64,000 nucleotides of DNA from Eledone cirrhosa (lineage: Eukaryota). Of this stretch, positions 13,339 to 64,000 are shown in pieces. How positions within the stretch are numbered: the stretch's first letter is position 1; every line of letters begins with the position of its first letter. The notes below the pieces were generated by a model. It was not told the origin of the DNA and did no database searches. It worked only from the letters and a program-made list of their open reading frames with translations. Location of the stretch: the NCBI GenBank assembly GCA_964016885.1, contig OZ024750.1:27094001-27158000 (forward strand). Reading direction: 5' to 3'. A program made the position numbers and the translations under genes.

Positions 13339-15680
13339 ATGTATATATATATATATATATATATATATATATATATATATATATATATATATATATATAT
13401 ATATATATATTACTTCAATCAAGATTTTAGCTTGTGAATTTCTAATTTCTAATTTTCAATCATAATTTCCACTGTGAAACCATATCTAAGGTTAAGTTTA
13501 TATTCTCTTAGCGGGTGATGGTCAATTCTATTGTCCAAGAATAATTTAGGGGTAGTATCGAGACCTATTGAAACTCATACTCTACCACTACCACTAGGTG
13601 TCGGTCAACTGCCACTGGCAGGGCGACTAGCAGTAAACTATAACCATGTCATATTACAGACATGGTTGGGGTGTGAGGGGACCGGCTTAGGTGAGTTTCG
13701 TAGAGTTGTGGGATGGTGTATGGTCAATTTCCTTCGGACTTGTGCCTGCGCAAACCGGTGGGGGTGAATTGGGACACACAAGGGGTCGGCGGCAGGATTC
13801 AAGAACAGTGGCTTTGTCAGTTCCCTTGTCGATTCAATTTGGATTGCCTCGGGAACATAACCTCATTATGTAAGAAGCTGTCTGATGATGTCATGGCACT
13901 GGGTACACGGAAGCATGTGGCCAATGTCGTCATTGAAAGATGTATCACAACATTATCATTAAAGGACTTTAACATCTGAAACTACTTCACATTTTCTTAT
14001 TCTCTCTCTTTCTCTCTCTCTCTCTCTCTCACTCACTCTCTCTCTCTCTCTCTCTCTATATATATATATATATATATATATATATATATATATATATATA
14101 TATCAACTAGAAATAGATTGTCATATATATATATATATAAGATAAATACAGGAAACAATCACAGGGAATAATTTGTAAAGATTGTAAGCACACATAGCTA
14201 GGTAGGTAACTAATTAAAGTTTGACTAGAATTTCAAATATAGATACCTTTTAAAATGATTAATCTCCTTTGTATATATTTCTTTAAGTAAGAAATATATT
14301 TCACCTATTAATCCGTAAGTCACAGCAGTTAAATTCTTGGATGTTCACCAAACGATGTTCACCACCTGTGGATATGGCGCATGTCTCTCAGACATGACAA
14401 CCCTTAATTTTAATTTTGGATATATATACGGCCCCTTAATTGTTGAGCTAATTAAGTTGAATAGGCTCGGCTGCTGTTTCTGGCTGTCGATGGTCCTATT
14501 CACGCCACTGGGATGACGCTGTCCGATGTGTGTATTTTTAAAAAATGCAACACGTGGTTCGAATCATTCATATATTTGCATTTGCTGTGTAAACACAGCT
14601 GGTTATTTTCTTCTCCTTTAGTGAACATTCAAGAATTTGTATGTAGATTTATATATATATATATATACATGGTGGCTGCCAACTCGTTTTCGAGTACGGC
14701 CACTACTTTATATCCATGTAGGAGAACCCCTACCGATGCGCTAAACAAGTGTGACTTTTTAGTCCAGCCAGCGACTTGAAAACTCTGGTACAGAGTGAGC
14801 AAAGGCACTGCACAAAGCCAGTCCCACTATCTTAACCAAGAGGATATTTACCAAAAAGAAGAACAAGTCAACATCATTAGATACCATCAGGGTTGCAGGT
14901 GTTATATCAGAGTTTTCCTTCTCCTAGAATTCTGTCTTGACAAAGGCTAAGGGGTCATCTCTCCCGGATATATATATACATACATACATACATACACACA
15001 TATATATATACATGGTGGCTGCCAACTCGTTTTCAAGTACGGCCACTACTTTAGATCCATGTAGTAAGACCCCTATCGATGCGCTGAACGAGTGTGACTT
15101 TTTAGTCCAGCCAGCGATTTGAAAACTCTGGTACAAACACTACACTTGTGACAAATATTGACACATAGTGCTGGGCCCATGTCACCATGTAACGACAAAT
15201 GCAGAGAGATCTCCAGATATAAAGCAATGCCTGTTCCGTGAAGCTTTTATAGTGAGCAAAGGCACTGCACAAAGCCAGTCCCACTCTCTTAACCAAGAGA
15301 GTATATATATATATACATACATAGATATATATGTATGTATGTAGATTTCTATATATATATATATATATATATATATATAAATCTACATATATATATATAT
15401 ATATATAAATCTACATACATACATATATATACGTATATATAAATCTACATACATACATATATACATACACACATTTACGTATGTATATAGCTATGCATGT
15501 ATACATTTTTATATATACATGCATTTATATTTAAGTATGTAAGGATATATATATATATATGATTGTGTGTGTATAATATATATATTATAAACACACACAC
15601 ACACACACACACACACACACACACACACACACACACACACACACACACATACATATATATATATATATATATATATATAT

Positions 15681-16157
15681 CTAAGGCGGGTAAAATTCCC
15701 GAGATCCATGGACGAGTTCTCTCCAGCGGTCTCTGTCCCTCATTATCGCTGCCATATCCTGCATCTCCAACAGACCTGTGTCTGTCCTTAGGGCATCAAC
15801 ATATGTTAACCTTGGTCTTCCTCTTCTAGTGTGTCCGTGTAGGGGCTCCCAAAGGAGCACTGAGTGCAATGTCAACTCTGGATGTCGGTGAGCATGTCCA
15901 GCCAACCTCAATCTCCTCTGTGTCACTTTTGAGCTGACTTTTGGGATGCTCCCATACATCTCTGAGTTTTTCATCCTCAGTGTATACTGATTAATGTTCA
16001 GAGCCATCCTCAGCATTCTCGTGTAGCACCCATCCACCATCTGAGTGAGTCTCTTGGTCAGTGTCCAAGTCTCAGACCCATACAGCAGCACAGACTCCAC
16101 TACAGCGATGAAGAGGCGGATTTTCAGGTCTCTACGAAGGTCCGACTTCCACACACA
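15681..16157 (-). mobile_element. RTE-clade LINE 3' fragment, open reading frame
   Basis: LKIRLFIAVVESVLLYGSETWTL...RMLRMALNI...RRLRLAGH...RGRPRLTYVD...DRDRWR. Confidence 0.9.
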
Positions 16158-16330
16158 ATCATTTATTTGCTTACAATTGTTTCCTCCAAACCGAGGTTTG
16201 GATTCTTCGGAGCAACTATTTAGTGATCTATAACATACTTGACCTCCTTTTCAACACAAGAGACATATAAAAACATATGCATATATTGACCCACATATAT
16301 ACATAACCATAAATAGTATCCTTAATACTA
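16158..16330. mobile_element. Rearranged copy of the CCGAAGA-hammerhead family (ribozyme 16167-16215 on -)
   Basis: Nearly identical to 7822-7868; carries the family 3' end ataaccataaatagtatccttaatacta on the + strand. Confidence 0.7.
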
Positions 16331-16365
16331 TATATATATATATATATATATATATATATATATAT

Positions 16366-16610
16366 GCGCAGTGTGACAAGAAGCCTGCTTCCTGACCATA
16401 TATTTCCGGGTCCAGTCCGACTGCCCGGGCCGACCATAGCCCTGTGAGTGGATTTGATAAACCGAAACTAAAAGAAGCCCGTCGTTTATATGTATATATG
16501 TCTGTGTGAGTCTTTGCGTTTGTGTTTGCCCTCCCACCAATGCATGTTAGTTTGTTGACGTCCCCATAACTTACCAAGGTGATGCTCCAGCATCGGCGTA
16601 TTCCAGAGAC
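16366..16610 (+). mobile_element. Second SINE family (internally deleted copy); diverged relative at about 28085-28390 (-)
   Basis: tRNA-like head, then gggccgaccatagccctgtgagtggatttg...aagaagcccgtcg. Confidence 0.6.
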
Positions 16611-16662
16611 AGAAAAAAAGTAAAGTATATATTATATATATGTGTGTGTGTGTGTGTGTAGA

Positions 16663-61400: not shown

Positions 61401-61655
61401 TCAACTTATCTACTTTGATTATCTCCCGAATTAATCATGCTATAACATTTTCAACAAATTTCATTCAATTTACCATGGCTATCCCAGTAATTTGTTGGTA
61501 ATACTTTTCCGAAATCGTTGAGGTTGAGAACAACTGATTCTTTTATCACCGCTATAATCTTATAATAATTGATATGGTATATAATTGATACCTCATTTAT
61601 AACTGTATTTAATTAATGGTATCTTCAACATTGTCATGTATATTGATATTTTCAG

Positions 61656-61790
61656 AATGCCCAGCTGGAAAGTATGGTGAGTTTTGTCGATTGACATGCC
61701 ATTGCTACGAAAACAGTAAGTGTAACAAGCTAACTGGAATGTGTCCAACTGGATGTCTTGCAGGTTATATGGGAGACAGCTGCAACACAG
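61656..61790 (+). CDS. Internal phase 1-1 exon encoding one EGF/laminin-EGF-like repeat (MEGF10/11, SREC or EGF-containing RPTP-like): ECPAGKYGEFCRLTCHCYENSKCNKLTGMCPTGCLAGYMGDSCNT
   Basis: 135 bp between ttttcAG and G|GTATTT. The 8-Cys pattern CPxGxYGxxCxxxCHC...CxxxTGxCxxGCxxGYxGxxC is typical of molluscan multi-EGF proteins. The gene presumably continues beyond the window. Confidence 0.88.
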
Positions 61791-61849
61791 GTATTTCCTA
61801 ATGATGCTAAGTATTTACAATATATATATATATATAGAAAAGATGAATA

Positions 61850-62920
61850 TAAAATGAAAGAGCTTTTATAATGGAATTTATTAGGTATTGACATATGTTT
61901 CTGTAACAGACGGAATACCTGTGTATCGCTGCTTGCGTAATCATATAATGTTAGCAAGTATTCGATAGCAAATGTATAACCAGTTGTCACTTCTTCAGAG
62001 ATATTGGATAAATTGGAAAAAATCAGAAAAATTAAAGTATTTATATTAGTTGTAAGAAAGGAAGAAATGAAGGGATAGTATATGACAGATGGCTATTCAA
62101 TTTGCTGGTAAACAAGTATATAGAAGGTTTTTAATGAGAATACAATGAGTATATGGCTTATTTTATCTAAATAAGAATTTTGGGGGGTGCCTATTTTAAT
62201 CTATATTTGACCAATTGAACAATGGACAGGGCTGGCCGTTTGGTGTAGTAGTATTAATACAGATATAAAGTGTCAAGTAAGGAAGAGAGAGATTTTCACT
62301 GCTACTGTATAACAACAATGCTGGTATCCTGCTGGTATATGCATTAGGGAATTGAATTAAGAAATCTCATTTTATCTATTGCAGTTTATATTAAATGGTA
62401 AAGAATAGAAGTGTTGATAGAATTAAGACTAATAGAGAATTTTAATATGTATTTTGACAATCAAACGGAGATGGAGACCGGCGTTCAATCCTGGTAGCGT
62501 TTGTAATATGAAAATGTAGATTTCAAGCGATGGTTACAGTTTAACGATCGCTCCATTCTGTTATTTAATAAAATATTTTTGGATTTCATAATACAAAATA
62601 TTTCCATATTACACAATTTACAAAATTCCTGTCCTTGGTTTATGCAGGGGTTGCACTATTATATCCCATTTTAGGTTAATTTGTTGGTTATTTTAGCGCA
62701 GCTGCCAAGCCTTGTCTGCGAGTGTTGCTACATAACGCTGGTTTTCATGTTTTATCGAGTAACGATATCTATAAAGGCGAGATTTGAAGGAGGTAGCTGT
62801 AGACCCCACATAGTATCACTTCTGGCTACCTGATTCGATAGTACATTTGTATATGATGTTGCGTTCAAGACACTGATTGTTCAACGGACACATTCCTGGT
62901 TGGACACAGTTACAGTTATA
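61850..62920 (-). mobile_element. Naiad-type Penelope-like element 3' part (GIY-YIG endonuclease plus tail), intronic
   Basis: CNCVQPGMCPLNNQCLERNIIYKCTIE...YYVGSTATSFKSR...AWQLR...LKWDII...CKLC..E...LLNNR.E (about 62480-62920, with stops and a frameshift). Confidence 0.85.
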
Positions 62921-64000
62921 ATATATATATATATATATATATATATATATATACTGTATGTCAGGTCACCAGTTGGTACTACTGGTAACATGTATCCCAG
63001 TACAACCTGTCTAATGGTCGGGTCGTTGGCGACTAAACTGGCAACCCCACCAAGGTTTCTTGGTGAGGAGGGTGACTTTGGACATCCTGCAGAACTAAAA
63101 ACAAAACCTGTCAAAGGGCAAGGGAGCTCTTAAGAGTCAATAGCCATCCAAAATCACCGGGAGAGATGACCCCTTAGCCTTTGTCAAGGCAGAATTCTAG
63201 GAGAAGGAAAACTCTGATATAACACCTGCAACCCTGATGGTATCCAATGATGTTGACTTGTTCTTTTTGGTAAATGTCATCTTGGTTAAGAGAGTGGGAC
63301 TGGCTTTGTGCAATGCCTTTGCTCACTATAAAAGCTTCACAGCACAGGCATTGCTTTATATCTGGAGATCTCTCTGCACTTGTCATCGCATGGTACCATG
63401 GGCCCTGCACTATGTGTCAATAATGGTCACAAGTATAGTCTTTGTACCAGAGTTTTCAAGTCGCTGGCTGGACTAAAAAGTCACATTCGTTCAGCGCATC
63501 GGTAGGGGTTCTCCTACATGTATATAAAGTAGTGGCCGTACTCGAAAACGAGTTGGCAGCCACCATATATATATATATATATATATTGAATAAGAAAATG
63601 CGAAGTAGTTTCAGATGTTAAAGTCCTTTAATGATAATGTTGTGATACATATTTCAATGACGACATTGGCCACATGCTTTCGTGTACCCAGTGCCATGAC
63701 ATCATCAGACAGCTTCTTACATAGTGAGGTTATGTTCCCGAGGCAATCCAAATTGAATCGACAAGGGAACGGACAAAGCCACTGTTCTTGAATCCTTCCC
63801 CGATCCCTTGTGTGTCCCAATTCACCCCCACCGGTTAGCGCAGGCGCAAGTCCGAAGGAAGTTAACCATCCACCACCCAACACTCTACGAAACTCGCCTA
63901 AGCAGGTCCCACTCACACCCCAACCATATCTGTAATATGACATGGTTATAGTTTACTGCTAGTCGCCCTGCCAGTGGCAGTTGACCGACACCTAGTGGTA

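Follow-up and report, generated by a model that had tools for sequence, protein, structure and literature searches.

A head-to-head pair of EGF-repeat genes in Eledone cirrhosa is the fold-back junction of one inverted gene in a 20-gene array with an excess of amino-acid change in the transmembrane exon

The stretch of DNA analysed here (the window) comprises 64,000 nucleotides of the 3.0-Gb assembly of Eledone cirrhosa (C10:27,094,001-27,158,000) and carries the starts of two EGF-repeat genes at the centre of a large eroded palindrome. Tandem-repeat-masked self-BLAST followed by collinear chaining revealed 15 nested reverse-complement blocks in the window (6,724 bp aligned), running from 13589-14000/64000-63590, the outermost, to 46686-47300/51415-50754, the innermost, around an unmirrored spacer of 3.4 kb; an initial annotation made from the sequence of this stretch had described seven such blocks. 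The alignment covers half of the right arm and one fifth of the left one, and multi-kb indels erode both. Each arm holds a signal-peptide exon 1 of 64 nt with a hydrophobic leader (recognised by eye, not by a predictor) and a phase-1 GT donor. In agreement with the initial annotation, the two copies differ by three substitutions and point outward, their ATGs at 19683 (-) and 58423 (+) lying 38,740 bp apart. The head-to-head gene pair that it proposed holds for both copies of exon 1, but within the window an EGF exon is present in the right arm only: the left gene, named Linv, lacks exons 2 and 3, and one has to go 2.3 kb beyond the left edge of the window to reach its first EGF exon. As detailed below, the palindrome does not stand alone. 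It is the fold-back junction of one inverted gene in a 20-gene array, in which the transmembrane (TM) exon has accumulated an excess of amino-acid differences.

In the census of the exon-1 block, 40 of 55 candidates were scored. Twenty copies occupy about 1.5 Mb of C10 (25.85-27.30 Mb), 19 of them on the plus strand and one, the left arm of the palindrome, on the minus strand; of the others, 19 fall within 310-315 Mb of C2 and a single one on C1149. The C10 units were named, from left to right, U15-U1 (+), Linv (-) and R1-R4 (+), R1 being the right-hand gene of the window, and the number of TM exons on C10 equals that of exon 1. The suggestion that the pair forms one unit of a diversifying receptor cluster is borne out by this 20-copy array.

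Much of what the two arms share is family-wide. The intron-1 block at 59388-60043 has 13 other C10 copies that are 94-95% identical over the full length, compared with 93% for the left arm. The decayed, GC-rich element was likewise found, whole or in part, upstream of exon 1 in all 24 other units examined on C10 and C2. Since exon 1, the intron-1 block and the upstream element are family-wide, the outer blocks are uninformative on this pair, and the transposon lesions common to both arms cannot serve as the proof of a pairwise duplication for which they had been taken. The three exon-1 substitutions are likewise unworkable for assigning RNA reads, as had been proposed, because the signal-peptide exon is nearly invariant among units: the left exon equals that of U7 and the right one those of R2, U8 and U14. 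The initial annotation had accepted that blocks matching other loci equally well would count against a duplication; the outer blocks do so, but two inner blocks, tested genome-wide, have full-length copies in the two arms and nowhere else. Together with the whole-gene mirror described below, these pair-specific blocks uphold the segmental inverted duplication at the origin of the pair. The GC-rich element, which we take from its motifs to be a non-LTR (long terminal repeat) retrotransposon, gave no Pfam match in three frames. In the C10 and C2 clusters alike, some 270 bp separate its end from the ATG, and one might speculate that it supplied the promoter of the family.

Chaining beyond the window followed the mirror between Linv and R1 through 53 collinear inverted blocks (23.5 kb aligned), tail exons included, as far as window coordinates ~107,900 on the right and ~-79,500 on the left, which gives arms of ~57 and ~127 kb. 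On its left side, Linv is bounded by a second, tail-to-tail fold-back at C10 ~27,000,100-27,006,750 (window -93.9k/-87.3k), whose blocks occur in two copies only, are pair-specific and are 0.8-2.7% diverged (53/3248 differences; 122/5559 with a 2.3-kb block at -162 kb, dropped as out of order and partly made of a dispersed element). The geometry of the array at the inversion is +/-/+. Arms made of mis-joined haplotypes, or of a mis-oriented contig, had to be considered: a gap at C10:26,950,306-26,950,505, the only one in 694 kb, lies 144 kb left of the window, between the U1 tail and the tail-to-tail junction, and many R1-private letters are unseen in contigs of a public sample introduced below. 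However, there is no N from that gap to 27,388,000, and the genes in the two arms differ in TM sequence (39 of 93 coding letters) and in exon number (23 EGF exons in Linv and 12 in R1), as well as by kb-scale indels. Since, in addition, each end of the inverted unit has its own diverged fold-back, an assembly error is very unlikely.

The homology of the arms stops inside a chimeric short interspersed element (SINE). Its 3' part differs from the SINE copy at 50754 at 1 of 41 positions and from six other copies at 6-11, whereas its 5' part differs at 14 of 97 positions from the 50754 copy and at 10-14 from the others. The chimeric SINE is therefore the likely template-switch point, and a replication template switch between inverted SINEs probably made the junction. 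The inner blocks of the arms differ at 70 of 1975 positions (3.5%) and the gene blocks at 569 of 8213 (6.9%, or ~6% without the GC-rich element). The lower value of the inner blocks could reflect arm-to-arm conversion, and hence a pair that functions as a unit, either as a maintained palindrome or through a shared bidirectional promoter. Such a unit is nevertheless very improbable in view of the multi-kb indels in the arms, of the distance between the ATGs and of the other 18 C10 paralogs, which are tandem and have just the proximal 1-3.5 kb of the upstream block. According to the available part of PMC11293582, inverted triplications (DUP-TRP/INV-DUP) have the same +/-/+ geometry, two spacer-bearing fold-backs and one switch inside an inverted repeat. 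They differ from the present case in that the junction flanks occur here in two copies, where a single-event triplication requires three, and in that the junctions are old and eroded; the two-copy flanks argue for two separate events or a later loss. Origin-dependent inverted-repeat amplification (ODIRA) reportedly offers a further comparison for this geometry. As mechanics, the duplication is unremarkable, and the palindrome, a commonplace structure that is well preserved, documents how the array grew.

Other repeats were noted in the window. A 381-bp inverted repeat (30858-31238/31647-32024), 99% identical and confined to the left arm, is likely a young element. A 274-bp block (30495-30768 and 54934-55203) lies in direct orientation between the arms and is also found upstream of R2 and R3. 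A 20-bp minisatellite is mirrored in the arms, with 52 copies at 40586-41636 and 28 copies at 53383-53941. The features of the locus are collected in Table 1.

Table 1. Features of the palindrome and of gene R1, in window coordinates
Feature	Position	Strand	Basis or remarks
Left arm (inverted gene Linv: 5' flank, exon 1, intron 1)	1..47300	-	self-BLAST, chaining; extends ~79.5 kb left of the window
Right arm: 5' flank and exons 1-2 of gene R1	50754..64000	+	extends to window coordinate ~107,900
Unmirrored spacer	47301..50753	.	SINE copies 47330-47523 (-) and 48123-48309 (+), 28-bp minisatellite, microsatellites
Chimeric SINE, inner end of left arm	47203..47300	-	comparison with other SINE copies
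SINE copy, inner end of right arm	50754..50940	+	
Pair-specific inner blocks, left copy	41901..42980	-	41901-42175 and 42525-42980; genome-wide search
Pair-specific inner blocks, right copy	51433..52459	+	51433-51868 and 52185-52459; genome-wide search
Decayed GC-rich element upstream of exon 1, right copy	55474..58150	+	
Decayed GC-rich element upstream of exon 1, left copy	19960..23459	-	
Signal-peptide exon 1, Linv	19620..19683	-	21 codons + 1 nt, phase 1
Signal-peptide exon 1, R1	58423..58486	+	
EGF exon 2 of R1	61656..61790	+	135 nt, phase 1-1, 8 Cys
TM exon of R1	98681..98777	+	R1 tail from 106590

The gene plan read from the DNA consists of a signal peptide, 4-33 symmetric EGF exons, a TM exon and a short tail. 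Whole-gene EGF counts were obtained for 9 of the 20 C10 genes. These contain 118 intact EGF exons, which measure 126-138 nt, are of phase 1-1 and with few exceptions code for 8 Cys, together with 16 that are broken or partial, an intact exon being defined by a score that penalises stops. Intact exons range from 4 in U2 to 33 in U1. The last EGF exon of Linv has lost its donor and reads into a stop; skipping it would preserve the frame. Of 13 full-length C10 copies of exon 2, 6 no longer have their splice sites, and the exon is degenerate in several paralogs. The TM exon is present in all 20 units with lengths of 88, 91, 97 or 103 nt, all 1 mod 3, and with common flanks, and it is followed in 17 of them by a separate short tail exon. 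A His-rich tail of 20-22 residues is nearly invariant in the U and C2 units. Linv and R1-R4 carry instead an Asp/Asn-rich tail with its own 3' flank (5 of the 15 tails aligned), which was found in none of 8 U or 2 C2 tails. The possibility that a conserved block at 96135-97300 forms a further exon was rejected, its acceptor being lost or changed in several units and the block being absent immediately before the TM exon of one C2 gene. The first 14 tail codons differ strongly among the R copies. R2 (144.6-157.3k in window coordinates) contains five 2.57-kb two-exon units that are 99% identical, a very recent gain of EGF exons, and in one gene at C2:314.53-314.62 Mb the exon-2 block forms a tandem series of 13 copies or more. 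Unequal exchange would alter the number of EGF repeats and hence the length of the ectodomain.

The closest matches of the EGF repeats (8 Cys, 44 residues) are octopus lectin-EGF and EGF-phosphatase proteins, with 55-70% identity. A profile of the 12 repeats of R1 matched PDB entries 6u11, SCARF1 8hna (1e-7) and Tie2, as well as 4,196 library proteins, and the repeat type is also that of PEAR1-like/laminin EGF clusters. Pfam matches of the repeats fall under the curated cut-offs, and a word-index protein search with exon 2, a weak search, gave no candidate. Orthologues of the EGF receptor phosphatase were identified in the genome itself at C2:257.5 and 261.8 Mb. Their EGF exons take the 135-nt form seen in the array genes, and the acceptor and donor flanks of their 94-nt TM exon are those of the array TM exons. 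These two genes are 99% identical, by recent duplication or as an assembly duplicate, and because they also have the same TM peptide the pair is too young to serve as a selection control.

No phosphatase or lectin match was obtained in 864 kb of C10 and 70 kb to the right, no exon of a protein tyrosine phosphatase (PTP) domain occurs within ~90 kb past R4, and none of 28 genome-wide phosphatase matches falls inside the C10 or C2 cluster. The same phosphatase query finds the exons of the true orthologues at 62-82%, and the array tail exon ends in a stop. For the F5/8 galactose-binding lectin domain, a search without positive control gave no match in the 9 whole genes. The phosphatase-bearing form was found in octopus, cuttlefish, abalone and snail (protein matches; available part of PMC12297450), so that loss of the phosphatase in the array family would be the simpler direction. 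It is thus likely, as judged from these exon homologies, that the array genes descend from an EGF receptor tyrosine phosphatase whose phosphatase and lectin domains were lost. Constant phosphatase exons shared by the whole array, as in clustered protocadherin-like cassettes, were rejected, since the units have tail exons of their own (17 of 20 found) and no PTP exon lies within ~90 kb downstream of R4. TM exons of a more distant kind, with related flanks, were seen at C2:232.2 and 232.4 Mb, one at each place; the one at 232.4 Mb comes after some ten exons whose EGF repeats are of another type. Phosphatase matches at C22:17.64, C14:9.15-9.16 and C10:12.09 Mb lie in uninterrupted frames of 579-1254 residues, possibly intron-poor genes.

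Tandem 8-Cys laminin-type EGF repeats and type-I topology are common to the array genes and to MEGF10/Draper/CED-1, and the repeat type is also that of SCARF1/SREC-I and Tie2; the likeness to all of these concerns the module only. The MEGF10/Draper/CED-1 proteins are further marked, typically, by an N-terminal EMI domain and a long tail with NPxY and YxxL motifs. Neither NPxY nor Yxx[LIV] occurs in any of 27 parsed tails (2-78 residues; 30 loci examined), with no long tail or kinase, and the stretch from exon 1 to the first EGF exon showed no recognisable exon, no EMI profile search having been made. The genes are therefore not members of the MEGF10/Draper group named in the initial annotation, and their nearest relatives are the octopus EGF receptor phosphatases. 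Paired receptors using DAP12/FcR-gamma-type adaptors presumably carry a charged TM residue, and none was present in 34 array helices.

Molluscan lectin (F5/8, galactose-binding domain, GBD)-MEGF receptor tyrosine phosphatases are represented by Octopus vulgaris CAI9733299.1, O. sinensis XP_029644740.2 (automatically named draper) and, in the available part of PMC12297450, Biomphalaria sudanica SudRes1. They share with the array the 8-Cys repeats, the exon form and a homologous TM exon with its splice flanks, and they are likewise clustered paralogs with EGF gain and loss (PMC12297450, same part). The array differs in that no phosphatase or lectin exons were found, in its tails of 20-78 residues, in its 20 plus about 20 copies and in the strong selection on the TM exon. 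With respect to this lineage, the EGF repeats and TM exon are present and the intracellular PTP domain is missing. A similar architecture, with a signal peptide, Tie2/SREC-type EGF repeats, one TM segment and a small tail in clustered genes, is described for the B. glabrata LG5R subgroups 1A/1E in the accessible portion of PMC13712769. The LG5R cluster is structurally variable, includes phosphatase-bearing relatives and was mapped at a schistosome-resistance peak (PMC13712769, same portion). The resemblance is one of architecture. LG5R is tied to parasite resistance, whereas the array is known from sequence alone, with no link to infection; the words 'positive selection' do not occur in the accessible main text of PMC13712769.

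In 18 of the 20 units, the TM exon is 31% different among paralogs, about six times the 5% measured over the 310 bp of intron that follow. Across 15 units, diversity is 0.30-0.32 in the exon; in the aligned intron bins on both sides it is 0.00-0.09 and goes up solely where the alignment becomes ragged at its end. In gap-free groups, nonsynonymous and synonymous differences per site (pN/pS) were 0.300/0.055 for R1-R4 and 0.271/0.105 for 13 U units. Eight disjoint pairs gave 105 nonsynonymous differences at 531 sites and 14 synonymous ones at 177 (Fisher p 1.8e-4). Codon models compared with omega 1 gave omega 5.1 for the 13 U units (2dlnL 26.6), 16 for R1-R4 (21.3) and 5.1 for five C2 copies (14.5); one peptide-duplicate exon and one exon likely out of register were excluded from the C2 group. 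Three further C2 copies had pN 0.228, pS 0.028 and an intron value of 0.022, a 94-nt intron figure of 0.249 being left unused as an apparent alignment failure. Fourfold sites differ at 6 of 520 and 3 of 44 positions. The comparison of R1 with R3 gave 17.5 nonsynonymous and 0.5 synonymous differences. Young pairs differ at 10-20 residues, U4 and U5 having 14 differences in the TM exon against 2 in 310 bp of intron. Of 34 TM peptides, 33 are distinct, all are hydrophobic and none is charged. Both the stalk (pN 0.29-0.33) and the helix (pN 0.26-0.29) are affected. All four bases vary, and adenine-specific or other targeted mutagenesis was rejected on this ground.

Contigs from three public runs (X1-X3) of one sample, S1, were also inspected. 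The runs were treated as DNA of that sample because introns are covered and no splice joints were seen; two other runs, X4 and X5, contributed little. Summed contig depth drops from ~150-360 in the intron to 0-20 over the TM exon, the pattern that a TM exon peculiar to each paralog would produce, and one contig carries, by inspection, the 17 letters that separate the R2 from the R1 TM exon. The R1 TM exon, like many R1-private letters at 57900-62300, was unseen in the S1 contigs, where the R2-type TM exon was seen. This is a hint of presence/absence variation of R1 only, as contigs cannot show absence.

We hold the array layout, the pair-specific centre, the whole-gene mirror, the exon anatomy, the homology of the TM exon and the amino-acid excess with high confidence. 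The reading we favour, with a rough probability of 0.5, is that of a fold-back in an array of phosphatase-derived EGF receptors whose TM exon is positively selected, likely by escape from a parasite or pathogen factor. The proteins would be expressed as non-catalytic surface receptors or decoys, tandem gain and loss of EGF exons would set their reach, and a factor binding or cutting them at the membrane would keep selecting new stalk and helix sequences. We put the chances at about even that the selective agent is an antagonist working within the membrane or next to it. Tetherin/BST2 offers a precedent, having likewise a single TM helix under positive selection, for which Vpu-like antagonists such as that of HIV-1 are proposed as the driver in the available part of PMC2633611. 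As presented there, tetherin differs in being an unrelated protein compared as orthologues among species and faced with a known antagonist; the array consists of paralogs with none known. Listings of open-access papers on cephalopod EGF clusters and on TM selection in paralog families showed none describing this pattern.

Several observations weigh against the favoured reading. The selective agent is conjectural, and exon joining and expression are predicted from the DNA. The EGF exons gave no net positive selection (45 of 81 distinct exons, fast tree search; omega 1.6 in the free fit with a lnL worse than that of omega 1), nor did exon 2 alone (2dlnL 0.7 against omega 1), and this missing signal is unlike a typical ligand-binding arms race. 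No helical-face periodicity of TM variability was found (p 0.53). The compared pairs share ancestry. Moreover, the disjoint pairs also show elevated synonymous divergence in the TM exon (0.079, against 0.034 in the intron; p 0.006), so that conversion contributes and can inflate tree-based omega. As for the inversion, five block trees are star-like, and Linv is not the nearest neighbour of R1 in 4 of 5 gene-body blocks, ranking second in the intron downstream of the TM exon. A single-event picture therefore needs later conversion, given also the ~6% divergence of the gene blocks beside 3.5% in the inner ones. We read the history as a duplication burst plus conversion.

The raised pS and the star-like trees would also be in line with a TM exon that drifts under hydrophobicity alone, with hypermutation or conversion from older copies and homogenised introns, as would introns that are near-identical beside divergent exons (U4/U5, U12/U13) and the splice-site losses of exon 2. 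Relaxation, however, cannot exceed the neutral rate, and pN is 4-8 times the intron rate. The few changes at fourfold sites, the R1/R3 contrast, the lack of base bias and the frame kept in 20 of 20 TM exons argue in the same direction, and the absence of an adaptive driver, already largely refuted, is improbable.

The driver could also be internal to the family: if TM helices set pairing, phosphatase-less paralogs may change their helix to avoid poisoning their sisters or the parent phosphatase, or to build a self-recognition code. In the receptor phosphatase PTPRJ, TM residues control dimerisation and activity, according to the available part of bioRxiv 10.1101/672147. The homology of the array TM exon to that of the phosphatases is in favour of this possibility, as are tails devoid of signalling motifs, for which a membrane partner would be needed, the high pN of the helix itself, and the Cys and small-xxx-small motifs of 11 and 14 of the 34 helices, respectively. 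On the other hand, the extracellular stalk evolves at least as fast as the helix, neither helical periodicity nor GxxxG (0/34) was found, and U4/U5, although very young, are still diverging, which is more like continual escape than one-off insulation. An internal driver, the main rival of the favoured reading, is thus tentative and rather unlikely. More doubtful still is a wider proposal, in which about 40 phosphatase-less receptors of a cephalopod type, grown by fold-back and tandem duplication, would carry their identity in the helix and their reach in an EGF stalk of 4-33 repeats, with an intramembrane code by which they would pair among themselves or with the phosphatase from which they derive.

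As a rule, receptor families that diversify do so in the ligand-binding ectodomain and leave the TM helix unchanged. The genes studied here depart from this rule: their strongest signal, with omega 5-16 in three groups of paralogs from two scaffolds, comes from the 30 codons of the stalk-plus-helix exon. The array appears, from its sequence, to be a set of diversifying EGF receptors of known architecture, in which the site of selection, helix and stalk, is the unusual part and the driver and expression are predicted. Its TM exons encode a small number of natural helices on which intramembrane recognition could be tested. The site of selection points to where an antagonist or a partner may act on mollusc EGF receptors like those at the schistosome-resistance loci of snails.

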